A stretch of 64,000 bases of DNA from Candidatus Micrarchaeota archaeon (GTDB lineage: Archaea; Micrarchaeota; Micrarchaeia; Burarchaeales; JACRGF01). The stretch is taken from NCBI GenBank assembly GCA_016212395.1, contig JACRGF010000048.1:10759-74758 (forward strand), written 5' to 3'. The notes beneath the pieces are model-generated. The model ran no database searches and was not told the DNA's origin. It worked only from the letters and a program-made list of their open reading frames with translations. A program made the translations under genes and the position numbers. Positions 2,001-59,603 of this stretch are shown here, in pieces (position 1 is the first letter of the stretch; every line of letters starts with the position of its first letter).

Positions 2001-2038
2001 CGAAACTCCGAAACTGCAAAACTTCAAAACTCTAAACT
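2001..2038 (-). repeat. tandem 8-nt GTTTTGRA-type array
   Basis: CGAAACTCCGAAACTGCAAAACTTCAAAACTCTAAACT; overlaps the last codons of nadE. Confidence 0.7.
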
Positions 2039-4242: not shown

Positions 4243-4946
4243 GGCGTGGCAGGCTTGGCTTCTCTAATTGGTATCGCGCCTCCGCTGCAGTGCTCCAAAT
4301 TTCTCGCGCATTGTTCCTTCATATTGCTGTTAATTATTTTATCGCAGTATGAACTGTCGCATTGAGATGAAGCTAAATTGGAATAGCAGTTGTCTTTGTT
4401 GTTCGCCATCTTTATTTTTTCGCAGAATGCAGCATCGCCTGCTCTTGAAGCGTACTGTGAATAGCAGCTGTCTTTCATGCTAGAATCAGTTATCTTGTCG
4501 CAGGCAGTCACGTCTTCGTTGTTTTGCGAGTAAGTTAAGTAGCAGTAATTCTTCTGCGTTCCAGCAGCGTCGCAGATGGCCGCGTCTTCTTTCAATGTTG
4601 CAAGCCCGGAGTAGCAATCCATCTTCTTGGACTCGCTGAGTTTCCTGCATATAGTCGCGTTTTCTCTCTTGAAAGCCAAGCCCATATAGCAATAGTCTGC
4701 GAATGCAGCGCCTCCTTTTTCCACTTCTGGCATGTCTTCGCATACTTTCATTTCAGGGTCTGCTTGCTCGGCGAGTTGCACTGCAGGGCAAAGGGAAACG
4801 TTTTTGACGACGGTAGTTCCGTCAGCACACACGTACTCTTTCTCTGCTTGGCCTGCTGCCTGGCCTGGCACTGGGTTAGTCACTTGAATACAGCCCAGCA
4901 AAGTGAATGCTGCAATTAAAACAAGGAGCAGGAAACAAACTTTCAT
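4236..4946 (-). CDS. Cys-rich repeat lipoprotein (paralogue of 59770..60912)
   Basis: Signal peptide ending LLGC; about 8 repeats of C-Y-x3-A...D-x3-C-x2-I; ATG 4946 behind AGGTGG. Confidence 0.6.
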   Translation of the reverse strand: MKVCFLLLVLIAAFTLLGCIQVTNPVPGQAAGQAEKEYVCADGTTVVKNVSLCPAVQLAEQADPEMKVCEDMPEVEKGGAAFADYCYMGLAFKRENATICRKLSESKKMDCYSGLATLKEDAAICDAAGTQKNYCYLTYSQNNEDVTACDKITDSSMKDSCYSQYASRAGDAAFCEKIKMANNKDNCYSNLASSQCDSSYCDKIINSNMKEQCARNLEHCSGGAIPIREAKPATPQ

Positions 4947-4976
4947 TAGAACCACCTGAAAAACGATTAGCGCGAG

Positions 4977-4988
4977 TTATTTAAAAAA
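4977..4988. promoter_or_regulatory. shared A/T box between divergent genes (candidate bidirectional TATA)
   Basis: TTATTTAAAAAA lies 29 nt before ATG 5017 (+) and about 31 nt before ATG 4946 (-). Confidence 0.45.
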
Positions 4989-5016
4989 CTATGGGGGAGT
5001 ATAATGTTTTGTTTGT

Positions 5017-5911: not shown

Positions 5912-6388
5912 TTACTCTTGTTTTTCAAACTTGCATTCTCCTCTGTAAAAAGCCCATTCTTCGCACTCTGAACCGTCTGGGAAAACGCACACGCCGAATT
6001 GGCTTGACTCGTTCTCGCGCAAGTCAAGCTGAAACCCTTGGGCGATGCACTTTTCAGAAGCAGGGTTTGTAATGGCGGTTTCTTCAAAGCTTTTGCCTCG
6101 CGCTTTCAACTCCACGCAAGCACTGTTTTTCAGCTCGCAGCCTGCAACGCGGAACTTCTGCGCGCAGTCCAAATCACAAGCCTTGCCTTCAACTGCCTCG
6201 GGAGTGCTTCCTTTCAAGTAGCATTTGCAGTCGCACAAGCTCAACTCGCACGAGCCTATTTCTTCAACAGCCTTCTGCTGGCTGGAACGCCAGAAATCAT
6301 AAATAAAGAAAGCAGACACGGCAACTGCAATGAGAACAACCAGCGCCTTCCAGTTTATTTTGAAACGAGGTTCATCGTACAACAGCAA
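5912..6388 (-). CDS. membrane-anchored Cys-rich protein with C-terminal DUF333-like domain
   Basis: One N-terminal TM; NPASEKCIAQG...GVCVFPDGSECEEWAFYRGEC matches the DUF333 pattern; TTG start abutting the ABCE1 stop. Confidence 0.55.
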   Translation of the reverse strand: MLLYDEPRFKINWKALVVLIAVAVSAFFIYDFWRSSQQKAVEEIGSCELSLCDCKCYLKGSTPEAVEGKACDLDCAQKFRVAGCELKNSACVELKARGKSFEETAITNPASEKCIAQGFQLDLRENESSQFGVCVFPDGSECEEWAFYRGECKFEKQE

Positions 6389-9399: not shown

Positions 9400-9909
9400 A
9401 TGGCTATATTTGAGGGTGGAAACGCAGTAGCAACAACACGAGGAGCTGCAGCTGTTGCGAGAGAACCTATTGTTAGCAGGCGAGTGCTTGAACCAATGGC
9501 AGAAAAAGTTGGAGCAGGCGACGCAACAGGGAGGCAGTTGAACTGCGCGCGTGTTCCGTACAGGTTAGCGCGCGACGCAACGAAAGCTGCAGTTGAAGAA
9601 GTTGAGAGGCGCATTGAAAAAAATAGGGTTGAAAGCAGAATAGCACGTAAAGAAGATAGTGTAGTAGCGTATGAAACTGAATCTGCCCTGGAGTTGCGCG
9701 ACGCGGTTTTAAAGTGTCATGAAAAGATTGAGGAACGGCTTCAAGCAGAGCTTGCTGTGAGGAAAAAAGCCGCAGCGCTGGTTGAGAAGGCGTTGCGCGC
9801 TTTCGACAGAGGCAGGAAGAACGTTGCTGATAATCTTTTGGAAAGAACCAACCGTATTCTGAACACGCTGGATGGAATGGATGAGGGAAGACAGGCAAAA
9901 GCACAGTAG
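9400..9909 (+). CDS. hypothetical coiled-coil protein
   Basis: ORF with a charged helical C-terminal half; no family recognised. Confidence 0.35.
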   Translation: MAIFEGGNAVATTRGAAAVAREPIVSRRVLEPMAEKVGAGDATGRQLNCARVPYRLARDATKAAVEEVERRIEKNRVESRIARKEDSVVAYETESALELRDAVLKCHEKIEERLQAELAVRKKAAALVEKALRAFDRGRKNVADNLLERTNRILNTLDGMDEGRQAKAQ

Positions 9910-16362: not shown

Positions 16363-16508
16363 GTCGACACAGTCGACTGCGGTCGACTTGTCGACATTTC
16401 GACTGCAGTCGAAATCGTCGAATACTCGAGCGACAAAACCGTCGGAGCGGTTTTGTGCTCCACAAGAGCGATGCATCGCTCTTGTCGGACAAGTCAGCGT
16501 AGACTTGT
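16363..16508 (+). repeat. cluster of six short perfect hairpins (GTCGAC type and ACAA...TTGT type)
   Basis: GTCGAC-ACA-GTCGAC; ATTTCGACTGCAGTCGAAAT; ACAAAACCG/CGGTTTTGT; ACAAGAGCGATGCATCGCTCTTGT; ACAAGTC/GACTTGT. Confidence 0.7.
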
Positions 16509-16524
16509 CGATGCTAAAATTAAT

Positions 16525-16640
16525 GCGGCTGTAGTCTAGCCTGGTAGGACTCGAGGTTGCCAATCTCGTAACCCGGGTTCAAACACCCGTCGCTGAAGCA
16601 ACGCGCTTTCAGCAACGTGCTGAAAATCCCGGCGGCCGCA
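16525..16640 (+). tRNA. tRNA-Gly(GCC) with ~43-nt intron in the T-loop (exons 16525-16583 and 16627-16640)
   Basis: Hand-folded cloverleaf: acceptor GCGGCUG/CGGCCGC, anticodon loop UUGCCAA, T-stem CCGGG/CCCGG split after UUCAAA; no encoded CCA. Confidence 0.85.
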
Positions 16641-16668
16641 TAACTTCGTGGTTTTCAGTCTTCTGTCT

Positions 16669-16785: not shown

Positions 16786-16869
16786 TCCCGGCGACCGCAA
16801 TTTTTTTAACGCGGTTGTAGTCTAGCCTGGTAGGACTTTGGCCTTCCAAGCCAATGACCCGGGTTCAAA
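16786..16869 (+). tRNA. tRNA-Gly(UCC), 3'-piece-first gene (circularly permuted or split): nt 60-73 at 16786-16799, 11-nt linker, nt 1-59 at 16811-16869
   Basis: The 5' piece folds to position 59 (anticodon loop CUUCCAA) and then diverges. The upstream UCCCGGCGACCGCA completes the T-stem and acceptor stem, including U5-A68. Confidence 0.75.
16801..16807 (+). terminator. T7 tract immediately after the 3' piece of tRNA-Gly(UCC)
   Basis: GCGACCGCA-A-TTTTTTT; oligo-T is the archaeal termination signal. Confidence 0.4.
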
Positions 16870-16998
16870 TGACCTTTTTTCTTTCTTTTTCTCTCTGAAA
16901 AAGAAAGAAAAAACCTCAACAACCAACAAAAGCGATGTGTCGCTTTTGCGGTCCACAAATTCGATTCGTCGAATTTGTTGGAAAAAAGAAAGAAAAAA
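16870..16998 (+). repeat. structured intron-like module flanking the 5' piece of tRNA-Gly(UCC)
   Basis: Y-run/R-run hairpin (16875-16913), then two ACAA hairpins, then a polypurine run. Same architecture as intron 18535-18676. Confidence 0.65.
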
Positions 16999-17008
16999 GC
17001 AAAAAAAT

Positions 17009-18208: not shown

Positions 18209-18294
18209 AACAACAACAGAAACAAAACAATTCAAAACCAAAAAATAAAAACCCCTTAAACAAGACCACCACGAACAAAACCGCAGAAACAAAA

Positions 18295-18336
18295 CCCCAA
18301 AACTCAAAACTCCAAAACTCCTAAACTTCCAAACCC
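18295..18336 (-). repeat. tandem 8-nt GTTTTGRA-type array
   Basis: CCCCAAAACTCAAAACTCCAAAACTCCTAAACTTCCAAACCC. Confidence 0.7.
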
Positions 18337-18430
18337 ACTGCAATTATTACATTCTCAAACAACAAACAATACGAACAATAAAGAATATAAAAATGAGAAA
18401 CACAAAAATAAAAACAGAAACAACTGAAAA

Positions 18431-18720
18431 TCCCGGCGACCGCATGATTTTTTTGTGGTTCTCGGTTTTGAGTCAACAGTTTTGGAAACCCCAAAACTGA
18501 AAACTCGAAACTCGACACTGCGGTTGTAGTCTAGTAACCTTTCTTTTTTCTTTTTCGAGTAGAAAAAGAAAAAAGAAACGTTAACGACCAACAAAAGCGA
18601 CGCATCGCTTTTGTGGTCCACAAAAACGTCACGACGTTTTTGTTGGAAAGAAAAAAGAAAAAGAAAGGTTGGACATCTTGGTAGGACATGGGCTTCCCAA
18701 GCCTATAACCCGGGTTCAAA
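18431..18720 (+). tRNA. tRNA-Gly(CCC), 3'-piece-first gene with an extra D-loop intron: nt 60-73 at 18431-18444; nt 1-15 at 18520-18534; intron 18535-18676; nt 16-59 at 18677-18720
   Basis: Pieces sum to 59+14 nt; anticodon loop UUCCCAA; acceptor GCGGUUG/CGACCGC; the D-loop intron forms a BHB (GUCU/GGAC helix flanked by AG|U and AU|C bulges). Confidence 0.75.
18448..18454 (+). terminator. T7 tract immediately after the 3' piece of tRNA-Gly(CCC)
   Basis: GCGACCGCA-TGA-TTTTTTT. Confidence 0.4.
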
Positions 18721-18722
18721 AT

Positions 18723-18770
18723 AAAGTTTTTTCTTTCTTTTCGGCGATCCGAAAAGAAAGAAAAAACTTT
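18723..18770 (+). repeat. perfect 22-bp polypyrimidine/polypurine hairpin directly after the 5' piece of tRNA-Gly(CCC)
   Basis: AAAGTTTTTTCTTTCTTTTCGG-CGAT-CCGAAAAGAAAGAAAAAACTTT. Confidence 0.8.
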
Positions 18771-18894
18771 AATGAAAAAAGAAAGAAAAGAAGAACGAGA
18801 AAAGAAAAAGAGGTACTAAAAGAAAGAAAAGAAAAAAGAAAGAAAAAAAGAAACGCTGAAAAAAAGAAAAAAGAATTAGGAACTGCTTGTTTTT

Positions 18895-20505
18895 TTATCT
18901 TCGCGCGAAGCCGCCCATTCCGACTCTTTGGAATGGAGCTGAGACTGCTTCCCGCTGCATTTGCACTCTCCGCAGGAACGCTTGCGCGTCCCTCGGCTTG
19001 GCTTTCAAGCCTATCGACAATTCTAAAACGCTTGAAGCGCGGACTCCTTCCACGCCGCGCGCCTTCAAATCGTTAGCCATTCGAACGTCTTGCTCGGCGT
19101 GCATGTGGATTACTTGCCTGCCTTTTTCGTTCAACTCTTTGATTTCTTGCGGGGTGAGCCAGTCGCGCACGTCTTCGTTGAGCCAAGGCATTTTCCTGCC
19201 AGCTTGAACGTCTTTGTAGAGTTCTTTAAGGCGCGTGAAAACATGGCTGCGCGTGCCTTCAGTGCCCACTTTAAGCACTTCGCCGTCTCCTTCGAAAACC
19301 TTGTTTCCGTCAGCGTCGAAATGAAATTTTGGGACTATCACGCGCGTGAAGCAAACGAGCCCGGCGTAATTGCCGGTCATGAACGCGCCGAGCACGTTTT
19401 CTCCGGCAAGGTCTATGGGCAAGCCGCCCCTGCCTGTAGAGCGCGTGAATAGTTTCACCGCCTCCAAAGCAGAGTCCGGAAGAGAAAACATTGCCTCAGC
19501 CATTTCAATGCCTTCAGCGCGCGCGAGTTCAAGCGTTATGGAACGCGTGACGCCAGGCAGGCACTTTCCCTCCACAACGTTGGGAGTAACGAGAACGTCC
19601 GAACCACCGTGCCTCACGACTGCAAACAAGTTCTCGCCAGTGCCCTCGCTAATCCTGCCGTCAGGCTGGGGAAGCAACGCGTCCTCGCAAACCAATTTCT
19701 CCAATCGGGAAACCTCGCACCTTATTCCATCTGCACGAAATTGATCAGGTGCACTGAGCCCGACAGTTTTCATTTCGTCATTCAATTTTCTTATTTTCGC
19801 GTGCACTGCTTCGTTGTGCAAACGCATTTGCTGGCGCGCCATTTTCGAAGCGTCGTAATTGGCGAACGACTTTGTGCTCAAGCTCGCGCCCTCGCGCGTC
19901 AACTCAACAGGCAAAAACAACGCAGCGCCCTCTTTTTCCGCTTGCTCGCCCAAGTAGAGGCCGACTTTCATCATGCTCGTGCCAAGCTCGAACTGGACAG
20001 GGTTGCCCAAGCCAACGCCGTTAGTCATGTCAGCAAGCCTGCTTCGCACGTAAACCCTGTCTGTCTTTCCGCCAGCACTCGCGAAATTTACTTTAACGGT
20101 TTTTCCGTCTTCGCACAAAATCCAGTTGTTTAACGCGAGCAACTGCATTCGCGCGCCGATGACTGCTTCCAAAGAATGCTCTGGATGCTTGAAGCCCTTT
20201 GTTCTCGCGCCCCATAAAAGCCGGGCGACGTTTACTGCAGGGTGAAAAAAAACAGCTGACTCGCCGTCACTGCCAACCACTCTCAAGACAGACTCGCCCT
20301 CGAACAACCCTAAGCCGTAATCAATGCTCGCGGACTGCGTTGGCACAGGGTTAGAGCGCGCGAGCCTCACTCGGTCTATTCCCACTAAAACAAGAGTACT
20401 CGAAAAATTAGGCAAACTGCCGTCGCGCATTCCAGCAAGCATTTCAGAGTATAACGCTTCAACTGACGAAGTGTCCAATTCCCCCACGCAAACGCACCCC
20501 ACCAA
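18895..20505 (-). CDS. fold-type IV PLP enzyme, branched-chain aminotransferase-like, atypically long (536 aa)
   Basis: YGLGLFEG, STKSFANY (compare IlvE KAGGNY with the PLP lysine), EGTGENLFAV, LPGVTR; start uncertain (TTG 20505 or ATG 20442). Confidence 0.6.
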   Translation of the reverse strand: MVGCVCVGELDTSSVEALYSEMLAGMRDGSLPNFSSTLVLVGIDRVRLARSNPVPTQSASIDYGLGLFEGESVLRVVGSDGESAVFFHPAVNVARLLWGARTKGFKHPEHSLEAVIGARMQLLALNNWILCEDGKTVKVNFASAGGKTDRVYVRSRLADMTNGVGLGNPVQFELGTSMMKVGLYLGEQAEKEGAALFLPVELTREGASLSTKSFANYDASKMARQQMRLHNEAVHAKIRKLNDEMKTVGLSAPDQFRADGIRCEVSRLEKLVCEDALLPQPDGRISEGTGENLFAVVRHGGSDVLVTPNVVEGKCLPGVTRSITLELARAEGIEMAEAMFSLPDSALEAVKLFTRSTGRGGLPIDLAGENVLGAFMTGNYAGLVCFTRVIVPKFHFDADGNKVFEGDGEVLKVGTEGTRSHVFTRLKELYKDVQAGRKMPWLNEDVRDWLTPQEIKELNEKGRQVIHMHAEQDVRMANDLKARGVEGVRASSVLELSIGLKAKPRDAQAFLRRVQMQREAVSAPFQRVGMGGFARR

Positions 20506-39887: not shown

Positions 39888-39965
39888 GTGAAGTTTAGAA
39901 GTTTTGGAGTTTAGGATTTTTGTGGTTTTGTTTGAAGTGGTTTTGAATTGTTTTGGTGGTTTTGA
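39888..39965 (+). repeat. tandem 8-nt GTTTTGRA-type array upstream of uS3
   Basis: GTGAAGTTTAGAAGTTTTGGAGTTTAGGATTTTTGTGGTTTTG... Confidence 0.7.
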
Positions 39966-41835: not shown

Positions 41836-41903
41836 ATTGTAGAGTGAGGTTGGAAGACAATACTGAAAATCCGAAACTCAAAACTTCTAAACTCGAAACG
41901 TTT

Positions 41904-45534: not shown

Positions 45535-45598
45535 AGAAGTTTCGAGAGCAGTTCAAAACTCCGAAACTACAAAACTCAAAATCAGTATTATGGTGGTA

Positions 45599-45970
45599 AT
45601 GATGATGAATGTCAAAAAACTGGCTGCGAGAAAAAAGAAAAGGCCGCACTTCAAGAGGTCGAACTGCGGAAGGCCTGACATGAAGAGCGTGAAGGACGTG
45701 TGGCGCAGGCCGAGAGGCATTGACAACAAGCAGCGCGAGCAGAAGAAAGCAGCAGGCCCTATTCCGAGCATCGGCTGGAGAAACTCGAGGGACATTAGGG
45801 GAGTCCACCCGTCTGGGTTTGTCGAGTGCAGGGTTCACAATATTGCGGAATTGAAAAATCTTGAAAGCGAAAAGCACGCAGTAATGGTAGCTTCAAGCGT
45901 CGGCGGAAAAAAGAGGCTGGAGATAATCGCTGAAGCGAAAAAAAAGAACTTGAAGATATTAAACGCGTAG
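45599..45970 (+). CDS. rpl32e: ribosomal protein eL32
   Basis: Sequence and position; several candidate ATGs at 45590-45605. Confidence 0.9.
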   Translation: MMMNVKKLAARKKKRPHFKRSNCGRPDMKSVKDVWRRPRGIDNKQREQKKAAGPIPSIGWRNSRDIRGVHPSGFVECRVHNIAELKNLESEKHAVMVASSVGGKKRLEIIAEAKKKNLKILNA

Positions 45971-46097
45971 AAATGGTTTTGCAGTAGTTTTGTTTATGGG
46001 GTTTTGAAGTTTAGGAGTTATTGGGTTTGAAAGTTTTGGAGTTTCAGCAGTTCGAAACTCCGAAACTGCAAAACTCGAAACTGTTTTAAGGTGTTGT
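45971..46097. repeat. 8-nt array followed by its inverted copy (long imperfect hairpin)
   Basis: GGGGTTTTGAAGTTTAGGAG...AGTTTTGGAGTTTCAGCAGTTCGAAACTCCGAAACTGCAAAACTCGAAACTG. Confidence 0.7.
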
Positions 46098-50340: not shown

Positions 50341-50416
50341 AAAAACGAGACGAGTCAAAACCAGCCAAGGCAACTCAAAACTGGAAACTGCAAAACTGAA
50401 AACGAATAGTGGTGTT

Positions 50417-53849: not shown

Positions 53850-53917
53850 TTACTTATTTACAGTAACGAAACAAAACCTGAAAACAGAAAACTGGAAACT
53901 GAAAACATTATAATCAC

Positions 53918-54274
53918 GCCGGGGTGGCAGAACCTGGTTAATGCGTACGCCTGGAATTAACCTTTTTTTCTTTCTTTTCTAGGAGAAAAGAAAGAAAAAA
54001 ACGTTAACGAAAAAAGAAAGAAAATGTAAAGAAACGTTAACGAAAAAAGAAAGAAAAACGAATGAAAAAAGAAAAGAAAACAACAGTAGTATTCATCAAA
54101 AAAAGAAGTGATTTCTTTTTTGGAATCTGGAGAGCGTATGGCTCTAACGGGCCGCATGGGTTCAAAAGGAGTTTTGAAGTTTAGAAGTTTTGAAGTTTCG
54201 TGTAGATGTTTTTAAGGGAATGCGAAACTCCAAAACCCGAAACTTCGAAGCCCGTGAGAATCCCATCCCCGGCG
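53918..54274 (+). tRNA. tRNA-Ser(GGA) with two introns: anticodon-loop intron about 53957-54132 and T-loop intron 54167-54260
   Basis: Acceptor GCCGGGG/CCCCGGC, discriminator G, anticodon stem UACGC/GCGUA with CUGGA in the loop, long variable arm GGCUC/GGGCC, T-stem AUGGG/CCCAU; exons sum to about 87 nt. Confidence 0.8.
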
Positions 54275-56791: not shown

Positions 56792-56855
56792 AAGCACTCG
56801 CAGAACGGTTTTCACACTGCTGAAAACTGGAAACAGAAAACCGAAAACGTTTGCT

Positions 56856-56994
56856 GCGGGGGTGTCAGAGCTAGGTCAAATGAGCAGGACTGAGGCTCCT
56901 GTGCCTTTAGTGGCTGCGCGAGTTCAAATCTTCGCAAACTCCGCTTGCGATTTTTAAACGGAGTGAAGCGGAGTTGAAAATCTCGTCCCCCGCA
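56856..56994 (+). tRNA. tRNA-Leu(GAG) with ~52-nt T-loop intron (about 56929-56980)
   Basis: Acceptor GCGGGGG/CCCCCGC, A73, anticodon loop CUGAGGC, long variable arm, T-stem GCGAG/CUCGU split after UUCAAA. Confidence 0.85.
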
Positions 56995-57005
56995 TTAGTG
57001 TTTTT

Positions 57006-57061
57006 GGTTTAGAAGTTTTGGAGTTTTGTAGTTTAGAGGTTTGGAAGTTTTGGAATTTGGG
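57006..57061 (+). repeat. seven exact-phase tandem octamers
   Basis: GGTTTAGA AGTTTTGG AGTTTTGT AGTTTAGA GGTTTGGA AGTTTTGG AATTTGGG. Confidence 0.85.
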
Positions 57062-57094
57062 AATTGTTTGTTCAAATGAAAAAGGTGTGGTGGT

Positions 57095-58729: not shown

Positions 58730-58817
58730 TTAGTGGTTTTGCAATTGTTTCGCAGTGGTTCTGAATGGTTTTGCCTCAGTAGTTTAGAAGTTTCGCAGTT
58801 TTGAAGTTTTGGAGTTT
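58730..58817 (+). repeat. tandem 8-nt array upstream of uS2
   Basis: ...AGTTTAGAAGTTTCGCAGTTTTGAAGTTTTGGAGTTT-ATG. Confidence 0.7.
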
Positions 58818-59603
58818 ATGAGTTTTGAGAGGGTTGATACGATGGAGGAAATGCTTGTACCGCAGGAAAAATACTTGGAAGCAGGAATACACATTGGAAC
58901 AAAGCTGAAAACGTCTGACATGATACAGTATATTTACAAGGCACGCCAGGACAAATTGTACGTGCTTGACTTGAAGAAAACTGACGAGAAAATAAGGCTT
59001 GCGGCGAGGTTTATTTCGCGTTACAAGCCTGAAGACGTGCTCATTGTCGCGTCTAGAACGTACGCAAGCAACGCGAGCAAAACGTTCTGCAAGACTACGA
59101 GTTGCAGGCAGCTGGCAGGAAGATTCGTGCCAGGCATTCTGACAAACCCGGCGAGGGAAAGCTTCATAGAGCCGAAGCTAGTGATAGTTTCAGACCCGAA
59201 GGGAGAACGGCAGGCGATAAGGGAAGCCGCAAAGTCAGGCATTCCGGTAATCGCGTTGTGCGACACGGACAACACGACGAAGTTCATTGACTTGATAGTG
59301 CCGTGCAACAACAAAGGCAAAAAATCTTTAGCGCTCGTTTTCTACCTGCTCGCGCGCGAAGTGCTTAAAGCAAAGGGAGAAATACAAACAGACGCAGAGT
59401 TTAAGACAAGCCTTGCGGAATTCGAGGAAGACGTTATTCTCGAAGAAGAAAACGCCGAACCTGCTGTTGATGCGGTAGAGGATTCTGCTCCGGCAGAAGC
59501 TGTTGCTGAACAACCGGCTGAAGAGCAGGAAGCGAAAAAACCGCGCAAGAAAAAGAAGGAAAAGAAAGAAGGCGAATCTGCTGAAGAAGCACCAGCACAG
59601 TAA
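58818..59603 (+). CDS. rps2: ribosomal protein uS2 with acidic/K-rich C-terminal tail
   Basis: [16 protein letters not shown]; start uncertain (58809 TTG, 58818 or 58842 ATG). Confidence 0.9.

Follow-up and report, generated by a model that had tools for sequence, protein, structure and literature searches.

A circularly permuted tRNA-Gly(CCC) gene, broken between positions 59 and 60 and probably functional, appears to be carried by a tiny, uncultured archaeon of the Micrarchaeota (DPANN). It lies in a 64-kb stretch of one Candidatus Micrarchaeota MAG, the whole of which is referred to here as the window. The case for a permuted gene is made by the sequence itself, by the pairing potential of its pieces, and by their conservation and covariation across genomes; that the gene is functional is suggested by the occurrence of the same back-to-front layout in related genomes.

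The tRNA pieces and the insert described in the original prediction were confirmed, with coordinates and sequences agreeing throughout the layout (3' piece, 75-nt linker, exon 1, 142-nt insert, exon 2). Joining 18520-18534, 18677-18720 and 18431-18444 (15+44+14) gives a tRNA of 73 nt, the last 14 bases of which are encoded ahead of the remainder on the same (+) strand, which also holds the other parts of the unit. The 3' piece, TCCCGGCGACCGCA (18431-18444, tRNA positions 60-73), is composed of U60, the 3' strand of the T stem (CCCGG), the 3' strand of the acceptor stem (CGACCGC) and A73, CCA not being encoded; it is preceded by CTGAAAA and followed by TGA and a T7 run. Upstream are a TATA-like box, ATATAAAAA (18385-18393), which is probably the promoter of the whole unit, and a leader (18394-18430) in which UGAA (18425-18428) can pair with the T-loop UUCA, leaving AA (18429-18430) as the bulge before the cut. 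The 75-nt linker, or intervening sequence (18445-18519), opens with UGA and the T7 run (18448-18454). It does consist of octamer units, as had been noted, but these form an inverted repeat that folds into a hairpin (approximately 18455-18518; -26.7 kcal/mol). The 5' piece then follows as exon 1 (18520-18534, tRNA positions 1-15), a 142-nt D-loop intron at 15/16 (18535-18676) whose removal restores the cloverleaf, and exon 2 (18677-18720, tRNA positions 16-59), which bears the CCC anticodon and ends with A59 in the T loop. The trailer begins (18721-18771) with an A and, right after the 59| cut, a perfect hairpin (18722-18771) that measures 23 bp instead of the 22 bp first given; its purine-rich tail (18772-18896) ends in a T7 run (18890-18896) that may act as terminator.

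The joined 73-nt sequence was accepted by ARAGORN as tRNA-Gly(CCC), with stems of 7/4/5/5 bp and A73, in agreement with the good cloverleaf claimed for it; all stems are paired, including C2:G71 and G3:C70. An intact CCC gene elsewhere had been named as evidence that would count against the permuted gene, and within the 64-kb window the CCC anticodon arm is present in a single copy. Exact copies of the 14-mer of the 3' piece occur in the window at 16786 and 18431 only, with a one-mismatch copy at 16627, meaning that there are three 3' pieces in total and none in the window downstream of the CCC 5' piece.

The two other 3' pieces belong to neighbouring Gly genes. A permuted tRNA-Gly(UCC) gene (16786-16869, + strand) is formed by a 3' piece (16786-16799), an 11-nt linker, AUUUUUUUAAC, and a 5' piece (16811-16869), while tRNA-Gly(GCC) (16525-16640, + strand) has the normal order (16525-16583 plus 16627-16640) and a 43-nt cis intron at 59/60 (16584-16626). 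The proposed cluster of three Gly isoacceptors all broken at 59/60 is therefore real, but only CCC and UCC (2/3) place the 3' piece first, GCC having an ordinary cis intron. In the window, cis 59/60 introns ending in UGA(A/G)AA|U are found in Gly(GCC), Leu(GAG) and Ser(GGA), and tRNA genes of the lineage frequently have 59/60 introns that end in UGAAAA|U. All three Gly genes of the window are missed or mis-called by ARAGORN and Rfam: Gly(CCC) escapes the standard finders, Gly(GCC) receives a distorted, sub-threshold call, no match was obtained in the window at the Rfam gathering thresholds, and a permissive Rfam scan gave sub-threshold tRNA matches for GCC and UCC alone. The miRNA-type matches that the same permissive scan placed on the Y/R hairpins were discarded as spurious.

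The same 3'-then-5' Gly(CCC) order was found at the syntenic site upstream of the ADP-PFK gene in the relatives L120/L121 and L124, whose ADP-PFK proteins share 64% and 66% identity with that of the window, respectively, and 69% between L120 and L124. Assembly error had been listed among the possible refutations; the L124 and L120 assemblies, which keep the order, are independent (an NCBI MAG and Logan contigs from different runs). The acceptor stems differ among the three, being GCGGUUG/CGACCGC in the window, GCGGCGG/CCGCCGC in L120 and GCGGCGA/UCGCCGC in L124, that is, the two strands covary. Across seven permuted units from four lineages, the upstream 3' piece pairs with the downstream 5' piece in 175/175 cells (100%), with 3/7 acceptor pairs changed on both sides and a covariation score that was reached by none of 500 shuffles. 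Since the two pieces covary across species, the permuted arrangement appears to be maintained by selection. With the cloverleaf, the order kept in independent assemblies of relatives and the compensatory acceptor-stem changes, a 3'-piece-first Gly(CCC) gene broken at 59/60 is upheld, and a homologous 15/16 intron in a relative lends further weight to the reading.

Both the window and L120 have all three Gly isoacceptors in one cluster. The GCC 5' piece of L120 matches its upstream 3' piece perfectly and would form a C6.C67 mismatch with the downstream one. In the more distant relative L125, Gly(UCC) is permuted and has a canonical hBHBh' motif, with a 9-bp leader-trailer helix adjoining the bulge (duplex of -48.8 kcal/mol, z = -3.5). 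The syntenic locus holds an intact gene in L178 and L125 and a cis 59/60 intron in L129, as in Gly(GCC) of the window; in the more distant PFK contigs L177-L179, synteny is lost or the genes are intact. No contigs were returned when metagenomes were scanned for the permuted arrangement (TGAAAATCCCGGNNNCCGCA followed by GCGGNNNTAGTC after a gap of 1-31), and a scan of a genome collection for the leader plus 3' piece gave no permuted case in at least roughly two dozen archaeal loci among the matches listed. The latter scan also returned many chance bacterial matches.

The 142-nt D-loop insert had been described as a textbook bulge-helix-bulge (BHB) intron. Its pairings were verified: GUCU:GGAC (4 bp), flanked by the 3-nt bulges AG|U and AU|C on opposite strands, and an inner helix, AACCUUUC:GAAAGGUU, of eight perfect pairs that can be lengthened to 21 positions at the cost of one mismatch and one wobble; excision of the insert restores both the exon sequence and the cloverleaf. 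The description as canonical did not hold, however, because no outer helix h was found, the motif being of the relaxed HBh' type, and because the BHB conformer is not the minimum free energy (MFE) fold. It lies 4.1 kcal/mol above the MFE, a local hairpin fold competing with it, and its pair probabilities are 0.18-0.44. The intron is modular, comprising a U plus a perfect AACC/Y-rich:R-rich hairpin (18535-18583), a double hairpin (18588-18646), a second R-rich copy (18645-18670) and GGAC-AU (18671-18676), and it is homologous to the trailer of Gly(UCC) (16870-17000). No C/D-box motif (UGAUGA) was seen in it by eye.

A homologous 15/16 intron is present in Gly(GCC) of L127/L128 (GUCUAG|UAAACUUUCUUUC...GAAAGAAAGUUUGGGCAA|CCUGG), with the same geometry as in the window and compensatory changes in the inner helix. 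Gly(GCC) of L171 has a D-loop intron too, with a weaker motif; this was the one true D-loop-intron Gly(GCC) gene among 47 loci retrieved in a metagenome scan for the exon-intron junction TAGTCTAGTAAMCTTTC, nearly all of which were rejected as chance matches, CRISPR repeats among them. The CCC genes of L120 and L124 have no 15/16 intron. The contig of the 88%-identical relative (L123) breaks off in the leader, and a search of it gave no D-loop intron. As for the enzyme, a splicing endonuclease of a broad-specificity type ((alpha-beta)2, epsilon2 or loop-bearing) was not among the 25 Pfam families listed of the 67 matched in the window; the broad-specificity epsilon2 type is known in Micrarchaeota ARMAN-1/2 and Mia14 (PMC3239211, PMC5829648).

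At the 59/60 junction, a pairing is possible that consists of the T stem, an AA|U bulge, UGAA:UUCA (4 bp) and an AA|A bulge, both bulges being of 3 nt. When the full precursor is folded with the T stem and acceptor stem formed, it lies 0.9 kcal/mol above the MFE, and 2.1 kcal/mol above it when the leader UGAA:UUCA helix is added. In the MFE fold, the T-loop UUCA pairs instead with a UGAA of the trailer (18773-18776), which was set aside as incidental, not being conserved in L120 or L124. The UGAAAA|U sequence is invariant across the permuted units (7/7); in the cis 59/60 introns that were scanned it was demanded by the search pattern, and hence its conservation there is not independent. The junction motif of Gly(CCC) is incomplete, lacking the outer leader-trailer helix, because no significant pairing of leader and trailer was detected (RNAduplex -7.6 kcal/mol, z = -0.5 against shuffles). 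A strict hBHBh' junction was dropped, the leader-trailer complementarity of CCC and UCC not rising above that of shuffles. The 23-bp trailer hairpin stands where the outer helix would be, and it is proposed to act as helix h' of the motif. A hairpin within a few nucleotides of the 59| cut is also found in L124 and in the cis 59/60 introns of L104, L111, L084 and L118, and in the L120 trailers the opening segment is Y-rich and pairs with R-rich sequence some 100 nt further on.

The organism being an archaeon, promoters were sought with archaeal TATA-like words. The ATATAAAAA box matches the TATA-like words of other intergenic regions in the window, and L123, L120 and L124 have conserved versions of it (AAAGAATATAAAAA / CATATAAAAA) ahead of their CCC 3' piece. 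The AT-rich element of the original prediction is thus present and conserved, but it is less likely to be a promoter of the 3' piece's own; it more likely serves the whole unit. Linkers range from 11 to 75 nt in the clade and are of 11-20 nt in 4/7 permuted units, which leaves no room for a second promoter, and in these short-linker units no TATA-like element recurs at a fixed place ahead of the 5' piece. T runs are the usual terminators of archaea, and cis tRNA genes of relatives normally have one as their 3' flank; in 6/7 permuted units, a conserved T6-8 run comes immediately behind the 3' piece. The D-loop intron and the Ser anticodon intron contain T6/T7 runs too, which must be transcribed through. 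Runs of at least seven T were counted six times in sense within ORFs. Because T runs in the sense strand of ORFs show a depletion of about 5-fold, they probably terminate in part.

Such termination is central to the main rival explanation, a rather unlikely one, in which the pieces are adjacent split tRNA halves in reverse order, transcribed separately and joined in trans. The RNA of the 3' piece would extend from the TATA at 18385 to the T7 run at 18448-18454, the 5' piece would be transcribed within or through the linker, and the two RNAs would meet via the acceptor stem, the T stem and UGAA:UUCA to yield an identical mature product. The conserved T6-8 run after the 3' piece agrees with this, as does the behaviour of T runs as normal terminators after the cis tRNA genes of relatives and their depletion in sense within ORFs; moreover, the octamer array of the 75-nt linker is the same as that found ahead of the 5' ends of normal Ser and Leu tRNAs, and the halves of Aeropyrum pernix tRNA-Asp are adjacent yet separate transcripts (PMC3218864). 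Two transcripts are nevertheless hard to reconcile with linkers of merely 11-20 nt in 4/7 units or with the lack of any TATA-like word in the 75-nt linker. The 12-14-bp GC-rich leader-trailer duplex of known split tRNAs is likewise absent (z = -0.5), and the T6/T7 runs of the D-loop and Ser introns need read-through anyway. The short linkers, the 75-nt linker devoid of a TATA-like word, the missing split-type duplex and the T runs read through elsewhere together seem to favour a single transcript.

It is very improbable that the pieces are nonfunctional relics, with decoding performed by a normal Gly(CCC) gene elsewhere or by Gly(UCC) wobble. The portion of the genome examined is 64 kb and the BHB motifs are not in the MFE folds, which would suit decay; yet every cloverleaf pair is intact, the motifs at both cut sites are invariant, the three Gly isoacceptors share one cluster in the window and in L120, and the arrangement persists at a PFK identity of only 64-69% while the pieces change in compensation. 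Hardly credible is a normal order with very long introns, or an artefact of mis-assembly. Because the 3' piece has identical copies at 16786 and 18431, sequence alone cannot assign them within the window; the UCC 5' piece (16811-16869) might, for example, be joined over 1.56 kb to the copy at 18431, the CCC 5' piece being left partnerless. This, however, would orphan one 3' piece and one 5' piece and place the ADP-PFK gene, in antisense, within the supposed intron; the 3'-then-5' order is repeated in the independent L124 and L120 assemblies, and in L120 the GCC 5' piece is mismatched with its downstream partner.

For the permuted gene, then, the following pathway may be proposed. A single transcript would start about 25-30 nt past the TATA-like box (18385-18393) and contain, in order, the leader, the 3' piece, the 75-nt linker hairpin, exon 1, the 142-nt intron, exon 2 and the trailer. 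The upstream 3' piece would pair with exon 1 to form the acceptor stem and with exon 2 to form the T stem, and the leader UGAA would pair with UUCA (54-57) as the 4-bp centre of a relaxed bulge-helix-bulge with bulges AA|U and AA|A, flanked by the T stem as one helix and by the 23-bp trailer hairpin as substitute for the other. The splicing endonuclease would cut after A59 and before U60, and an RNA ligase would join A59 to U60, generating a circular intermediate; the D-loop intron would be removed at the second relaxed motif (HBh') at 15/16. Finally, RNase P and RNase Z would open the circle at the linker, with CCA added afterwards. The limits of the transcript, the read-through of the linker T7 run, the individual cuts and ligations and the circular intermediate are all inferred.

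So far, reports of permuted tRNA genes come from one archaeon, Thermofilum pendens (two genes), and a few algae. The genes of T. pendens are also archaeal and resemble Gly(CCC) in placing the 3' piece immediately ahead of the 5' piece, both on one strand, in the T-loop junction at 59/60, in an additional intron in the 5' piece and in a promoter, a probable one in Gly(CCC), upstream of the 3' piece; like them, Gly(CCC) is single-copy, within the 64 kb examined, and presumably essential for decoding. T. pendens is, however, a crenarchaeon, its linkers are of 1 and 7 nt (75 nt in Gly(CCC), with a T6-8 run, and 11-75 nt in the clade), CCA is encoded, the extra intron is at the canonical 37/38 instead of 15/16, and the junction forms a BHB, whereas that of Gly(CCC) lacks the leader-trailer helix. 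In Micrarchaeota, in contrast, the members of a whole isoacceptor family are affected, and several genera keep the layout. The alga Cyanidioschyzon merolae also combines permutation with a D-loop intron and has a type IV (59/60) junction (PMC3978253, PMC3218864). Shared as well are intervening sequences of up to 74 nt, an upstream TATA-like element and the pathway, proposed for Gly(CCC), in which RNase P and tRNase Z open a circular intermediate and CCA is added later. The alga differs in being eukaryotic, with Pol III transcription, and in the absence of a terminator, or terminator-like T stretch, from the intervening sequence (PMC3978253); its circular intermediates were shown experimentally, that of Gly(CCC) being a proposal.

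The split tRNAs of Nanoarchaeum equitans and A. pernix (tRNA-Asp) are joined at a BHB-type motif by endonuclease and ligase (PMC3218864), as proposed for Gly(CCC); the pieces of A. pernix tRNA-Asp are adjacent, and split tRNAs have a terminator-like T run after the first-encoded piece. Known split tRNAs, unlike Gly(CCC), have separate promoters and 12-14-bp GC-rich complementary leaders and trailers, and in the permuted units a promoter would not fit into most linkers and the order is 3' before 5'. Closest in phylum, cut site and type of relaxed motif is ARMAN-2 (Ca. Micrarchaeum), with non-canonical 59/60 introns, a relaxed hBH motif and an epsilon2 endonuclease (Fujishima et al. 2011, PMC3239211; PMC12397907), but its tRNA genes with 59/60 introns run 5' to 3' as usual. 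No permuted tRNA gene is reported in the literature for ARMAN or other DPANN genomes. The best reading of Gly(CCC) is a gene of the kind known from T. pendens and C. merolae, here in a new lineage, and departing from known permuted genes in the conserved T6-8 run of the intervening sequence and in the lack of a leader-trailer helix.

The origin of permuted tRNA genes is still debated through scenarios. In the present case it likely lies in tandem or recombined intron-bearing Gly genes, in which case the leader would descend from the 3' end of a 59/60 intron, the trailer from the 5' part of one, and the T run after the 3' piece from an old terminator. The cassette formed by the Y-rich/R-rich hairpin and the double hairpin is found in the Gly(CCC) D-loop intron, in the Gly(UCC) 59/60 trailer and partly in the Ser(GGA) anticodon-loop intron. 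A bolder and doubtful idea is that this cassette is a mobile, endonuclease-compatible element, recombination between whose copies gave rise to permuted genes, and that the junction is a new class of substrate. If true, the cassette would insert into tRNA genes and recombination in clustered isoacceptor genes would repeatedly permute the intron-bearing ones, UCC first, then CCC, then GCC in L120; one BHB helix would be supplied by the trailer hairpin rather than by leader-trailer pairing, and permuted tRNA genes would be seen in the making in Micrarchaeota.

In this archaeon, a second and unrelated lineage, the DPANN Micrarchaeota, would join T. pendens in having permuted tRNA genes, and would do so for a whole isoacceptor family. 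One syntenic locus presents all stages, from the intact gene (L178, L125) and the cis 59/60 intron (L129, window GCC) to permuted forms with a canonical BHB (L125 UCC) or with the T run kept and no leader-trailer helix (window, L120, L124), and a tandem-gene/recombination origin therefore becomes testable by comparative genomics. Genes of this type would also explain the incomplete tRNA sets that standard finders return for DPANN genomes, gaps which Kaneta et al. 2018 (PMC5829648) regarded as pointing to disrupted genes not yet identified. Missed Gly genes would in turn affect what is concluded about completeness and auxotrophy in Micrarchaeota MAGs.

The Gly(CCC) gene opens with its 3' piece (tRNA positions 60-73), TCCCGGCGACCGCA (18431-18444), with CTGAAAA in front of it and TGA plus a run of seven T (18448-18454) behind. 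A 75-nt linker (18445-18519) separates it from the 5' piece (positions 1-59), made of exon 1 GCGGTTGTAGTCTAG (18520-18534), a 142-nt insert (18535-18676) and exon 2 CTTGG...GGGTTCAAA (18677-18720), and a sequence check of the window found all these elements on the plus strand, where the original prediction had placed them. Once joined, the 5' and 3' pieces form the predicted cloverleaf, which is accepted by ARAGORN as a 73-nt tRNA-Gly(CCC) with four stems all paired and A73; the joined pieces of the neighbouring UCC and GCC genes pass the same test. On the unspliced window the sole Gly report of ARAGORN was a distorted Gly(GCC), and Rfam returned nothing at the gathering score, the Gly(CCC) gene being without any match. 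Within the window, the 3'-piece 14-mer has just two exact copies, at 16786 and 18431, and one copy with a single mismatch, at 16627; the CCC anticodon arm is found once. The motif GUGGUY(U/C)UC is conserved 3' of the 3' piece in the permuted CCC gene (18455-18470), the cis GCC gene (16648-16660) and the linker of the GCC gene of the related contig L120; it is able to pair with the 3' acceptor strand (GACCGCA/UGUGGUU) over a U-rich loop, and may be a degenerate 5' acceptor strand remnant or a processing/termination hairpin.

As anticipated, all three Gly isoacceptors are clustered and each is broken at 59/60, GCC by a cis intron and the other two by permutation. Gly(GCC) (16525-16583 and 16627-16640, plus strand) has the normal order with a 43-nt intron, and Gly(UCC) (16786-16799 and 16811-16869, plus strand) has its 3' piece ahead of the 5' piece, across a linker of 11 nt. 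The window, part of a Candidatus Micrarchaeota MAG, represents core chromosome, with ribosomal proteins, SecY and IleRS among its genes, and the ADP-PFK gene between UCC and CCC matches NCBI protein HY992_04795 at 100% identity. Breaks at 59/60 also affect tRNA-Leu(GAG) (56856-56994), whose 52-nt cis intron (56929-56980) closes with UGAAAA|U, and tRNA-Ser(GGA) (53918-54274), which has a 176-nt anticodon-loop intron, its exact site being ambiguous because CUGGA repeats at both ends, and a 94-nt 59/60 intron (54167-54260) that ends in UGAGAA|U and consists of octamer repeats together with their complement. ARAGORN confirmed both tRNAs in spliced form; on the raw sequence Leu(GAG) was missed by ARAGORN and Rfam alike. 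Cis introns at 59/60 ending in UGA(A/G)AA|U are therefore the normal intron type of the lineage, and ARMAN-2 tRNAs likewise show 59/60 breaks with the same 3' motif (PMC3239211). Arrays of period 7-8 (CAAAACTC / NNGAAAAC, complement AGTTTTGA) populate many intergenic regions of the window (2003-2036, 18290-18333, 39890-39922, 41872-41899, 45553-46082, 50372-50403, 53869-53907, 54170-54249, 56822-56848, 57000-57065 and 58781-58828), often just ahead of the 5' end of a tRNA; their complements lie downstream or within introns. Leaders and trailers could thus pair, and the arrays may act as promoter-proximal elements, processing stems or otherwise.

The decisive loci came from related contigs traced through the ADP-PFK gene. 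In L120/L121 (GCA_053535415.1; PFK 64% identical), gene order is that of the window (IleRS, transglutaminase, Gly genes, PFK, Gly gene), and each of the three Gly genes has its 3' piece first, the linkers measuring 75, 14 and 14 nt. The longest belongs to Gly(GCC) (9515-9662, minus-strand index, JAIYJG010000062.1) and equals the window CCC linker in length; as this gene is permuted in L120 and carries a cis intron in the window, the locus changed state between the two genomes. The Logan contig L124 (SRR22387786; PFK identity 66% to the window and 69% to L120) has a 3'-piece-first Gly(CCC) with a 20-nt linker. In the more divergent L125/L126 (PFK 40%), GCC and CCC are normal and UCC is 3'-piece-first with a 51-nt linker, while the UCC genes of two other contigs have a cis intron at 59/60 (L129) or are intact (L178). 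A scan of species-representative genomes with the leader and 3' piece as query gave, among the matches listed, at least about two dozen archaeal loci (Micrarchaeota, Thermoplasmata, Aenigmatarchaeota, Freyarchaeota); wherever a Gly gene was recognisable in the listed matches, the 59/60 break was a cis intron with UGA(A/G)AA|U at its 3' end; the permuted layout was seen in none of the listed archaeal matches. A more remote Micrarchaeia MAG, L127, also has heavily disrupted Gly tRNAs (4806-4992 and 6143-6289, minus-strand index): GCC has three introns (D-loop at 15/16, anticodon and T-arm), and CCC has two T-loop introns, at about 54/55 and 59/60, like ARMAN-2 tRNA-Pro(GGG).

The upstream 3' pieces and downstream 5' pieces covary in their acceptor stems, which read GCGGUUG/CGACCGC in the window, GCGGCGG/CCGCCGC in L120 and GCGGCGA/UCGCCGC in L124. 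In an alignment of the seven permuted units (four lineages: window, L120, L124, L125), standard pairs occupy 175 of 175 cells, and three of the seven acceptor pairs are altered on both sides. The covariation score was reached by none of 500 shuffles, and slid registers fall to 28-55% pairing. The L120 GCC 5' piece matches its upstream 3' piece perfectly; the downstream one would give a C6.C67 mismatch. The compared assemblies (one an NCBI MAG, the others Logan contigs of separate runs) are independent and agree, so that pseudogene decay is unlikely, as is the assembly error that had been named as a possible refutation, the order being repeated in relatives.

The mature tRNA would be identical whether the pieces are transcribed as one RNA or two. 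We consider it probable that the T run is read through and that a permuted precursor is made. The main rival, adjacent trans-spliced halves made from two transcripts, draws on the T6-8 run that follows the 3' piece in six of the seven units and is the normal 3' flank of relatives' cis tRNA genes, and on the algal permuted genes, whose intervening sequence has no terminator (PMC3978253). This objection is weakened by the T6 and T5 runs of the D-loop intron and the T7 run of the Ser intron, which must be transcribed because those tRNAs could not exist otherwise, and by the six sense T runs of at least 7 nt in window ORFs. Being present in such introns and in ORFs, T runs are leaky terminators here; their rarity in ORFs, about five-fold relative to A runs (19, 6 and 2 sense T runs of at least 6, 7 and 8 nt, against 92, 31 and 7 A runs), is consistent with partial termination.

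Promoter and linker features also speak against two transcripts. The AT-rich word ATATAAAAA (18385-18393), correctly noted upstream of the 3' piece, is TATA-like, similar to words of other intergenic regions, and conserved 5' of the CCC 3' piece in L120, L124 and the related L123; no TATA-like word was found in the 75-nt linker, and linkers measure only 11-20 nt in four of the seven units. Extended leader-trailer complementarity, probably needed by a bimolecular reaction (PMC3218864), is lacking at window Gly(CCC), where the outer helix is missing (RNAduplex -7.6 kcal/mol, z = -0.5). Adjacent trans-spliced halves are kept as a less probable rival to the permuted precursor.

At the 59/60 junction of that precursor, T-loop UUCA (54-57) is predicted to pair with leader UGAA (18425-18428), leaving bulges AA|U (leader/3' piece) and AA|A (5' piece/trailer), with the T stem on one side. 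A 405-nt model precursor has an MFE of -142.1 kcal/mol; the fold with T and acceptor stems reaches -141.2, and that with the leader helix as well -140.0. The predicted perfect hairpin after the 5' piece is present, with 23 bp (18722-18771) instead of 22, and starts one base past the cut. Trailers that self-fold from near the cut, with no significant leader-trailer duplex, also occur in window UCC, L120 UCC and CCC, and L124 CCC (hairpin from the first base past the cut), and relatives' cis 59/60 introns open with such a hairpin. Real leader-trailer helices exist in two units, L125 UCC, a textbook strict bulge-helix-bulge (BHB; hBHBh') whose 9-bp helix adjoins the bulge (duplex -48.8 kcal/mol, z = -3.5), and L120 GCC (13 bp, AAGCUCGGACUAU / AUAGUCCGAGCUU, z about -2). 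Given the missing helix and the self-folding trailer, we infer from these models a relaxed motif at the window CCC junction, in which the T stem, one bulge and the central helix (hBH) would define the 3'-piece cut and the trailer hairpin would stand in for h' at the 5'-piece cut.

The 142-nt insert lies between tRNA positions 15 and 16, and all its predicted pairs are present: G10-U13 with GGAC (18671-18674), bulges A14 G15|U and A U|C16, and an inner helix, AACCUUUC with GAAAGGUU, extendable to 21 positions if one mismatch and one wobble are allowed. To call this a textbook BHB is an overstatement: bulges, 4-bp helix and inner helix are there, but no outer helix was found, so the motif is HBh' and not the strict hBHBh'. 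In the MFE structure (-69.0 kcal/mol) the 5' Y-rich strand forms a perfect 17-bp local hairpin with the middle R-rich copy, the BHB conformer lying at -64.9 kcal/mol with pair probabilities of 0.18-0.44. The CCC genes of L120 and L124 lack this intron. Gly(GCC) of L127/L128 has a homologous intron at 15/16 with the same geometry (GUCU:GGGC, bulges AG|U and AA|C), its inner helix AAACUUUCUUUC:GAAAGAAAGUUU showing compensatory differences to the window AACC:GGUU, and the contig L171 has a weaker homologue. An estimate from alignment puts the identity between the intron and the Gly(UCC) trailer (16870-17000) at about three-quarters, and the two correspond in each module, sharing U(G/A)ACC with a Y/R hairpin, a double hairpin and a second R-rich copy; this homology suggests a mobile or duplicated cassette. 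The first module recurs near-identically at the start of the Ser(GGA) anticodon-loop intron, and such likeness suggests that these intron cassettes form one family and may be mobile. The double-hairpin element (CCAACAAA..UUUGUGGNCCACAAA..UUUGUUGG), as a whole a palindrome of two hairpins, has four copies in the window, in the tRNA-Gly cluster only (cores at 16453, 16692, 16946 and 18611; 9 strand-hits vs 1.8 expected), and occurs in L120 trailers and the L123 leader. Its stems are conserved at the base and covary above (AAGCGA/UCGCUU, GUCAGA/UCUGAC, AACCG/CGGUU, AAACG/CGUUU). Exon-intron pattern matches in four metagenome contigs (L130, L132, L166, L173) were unrelated chance hits in CRISPR arrays with repeat GTTTCAATTCCTCATAGGTAGTCTAGTAAC.

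The permuted genes may descend from tandem or recombined intron-bearing Gly genes, a tandem-gene scenario having been discussed by Soma (PMC3978253). Three parts suit such a descent: the leader closes with the conserved 3' terminus of a 59/60 intron, the trailer begins like the 5' part of one, and the T run sits where the upstream copy's terminator would be expected. Judging by the states shared among relatives, UCC was permuted first (L125, L120, window), CCC next (window, L120, L124) and GCC in L120 only.

Window Gly(CCC) probably belongs to a known kind, the circularly permuted tRNA gene with a 59/60 junction, as in Thermofilum pendens (iMet, Tyr) and Cyanidioschyzon merolae, the latter having a permuted Gly(CCC) and an Arg(CCU) gene with a 14/15 intron (PMC3218864, PMC3978253). 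A full-text search found no literature linking permuted tRNAs with Micrarchaeota; the DPANN papers it found that name such tRNAs cite the T. pendens case, and Kaneta et al. explicitly describe incomplete tRNA sets among DPANN genomes (PMC5829648). Three variant features stand out: the intervening sequence carries a terminator-like run, the junction lacks a leader-trailer helix, and an entire isoacceptor family is affected.
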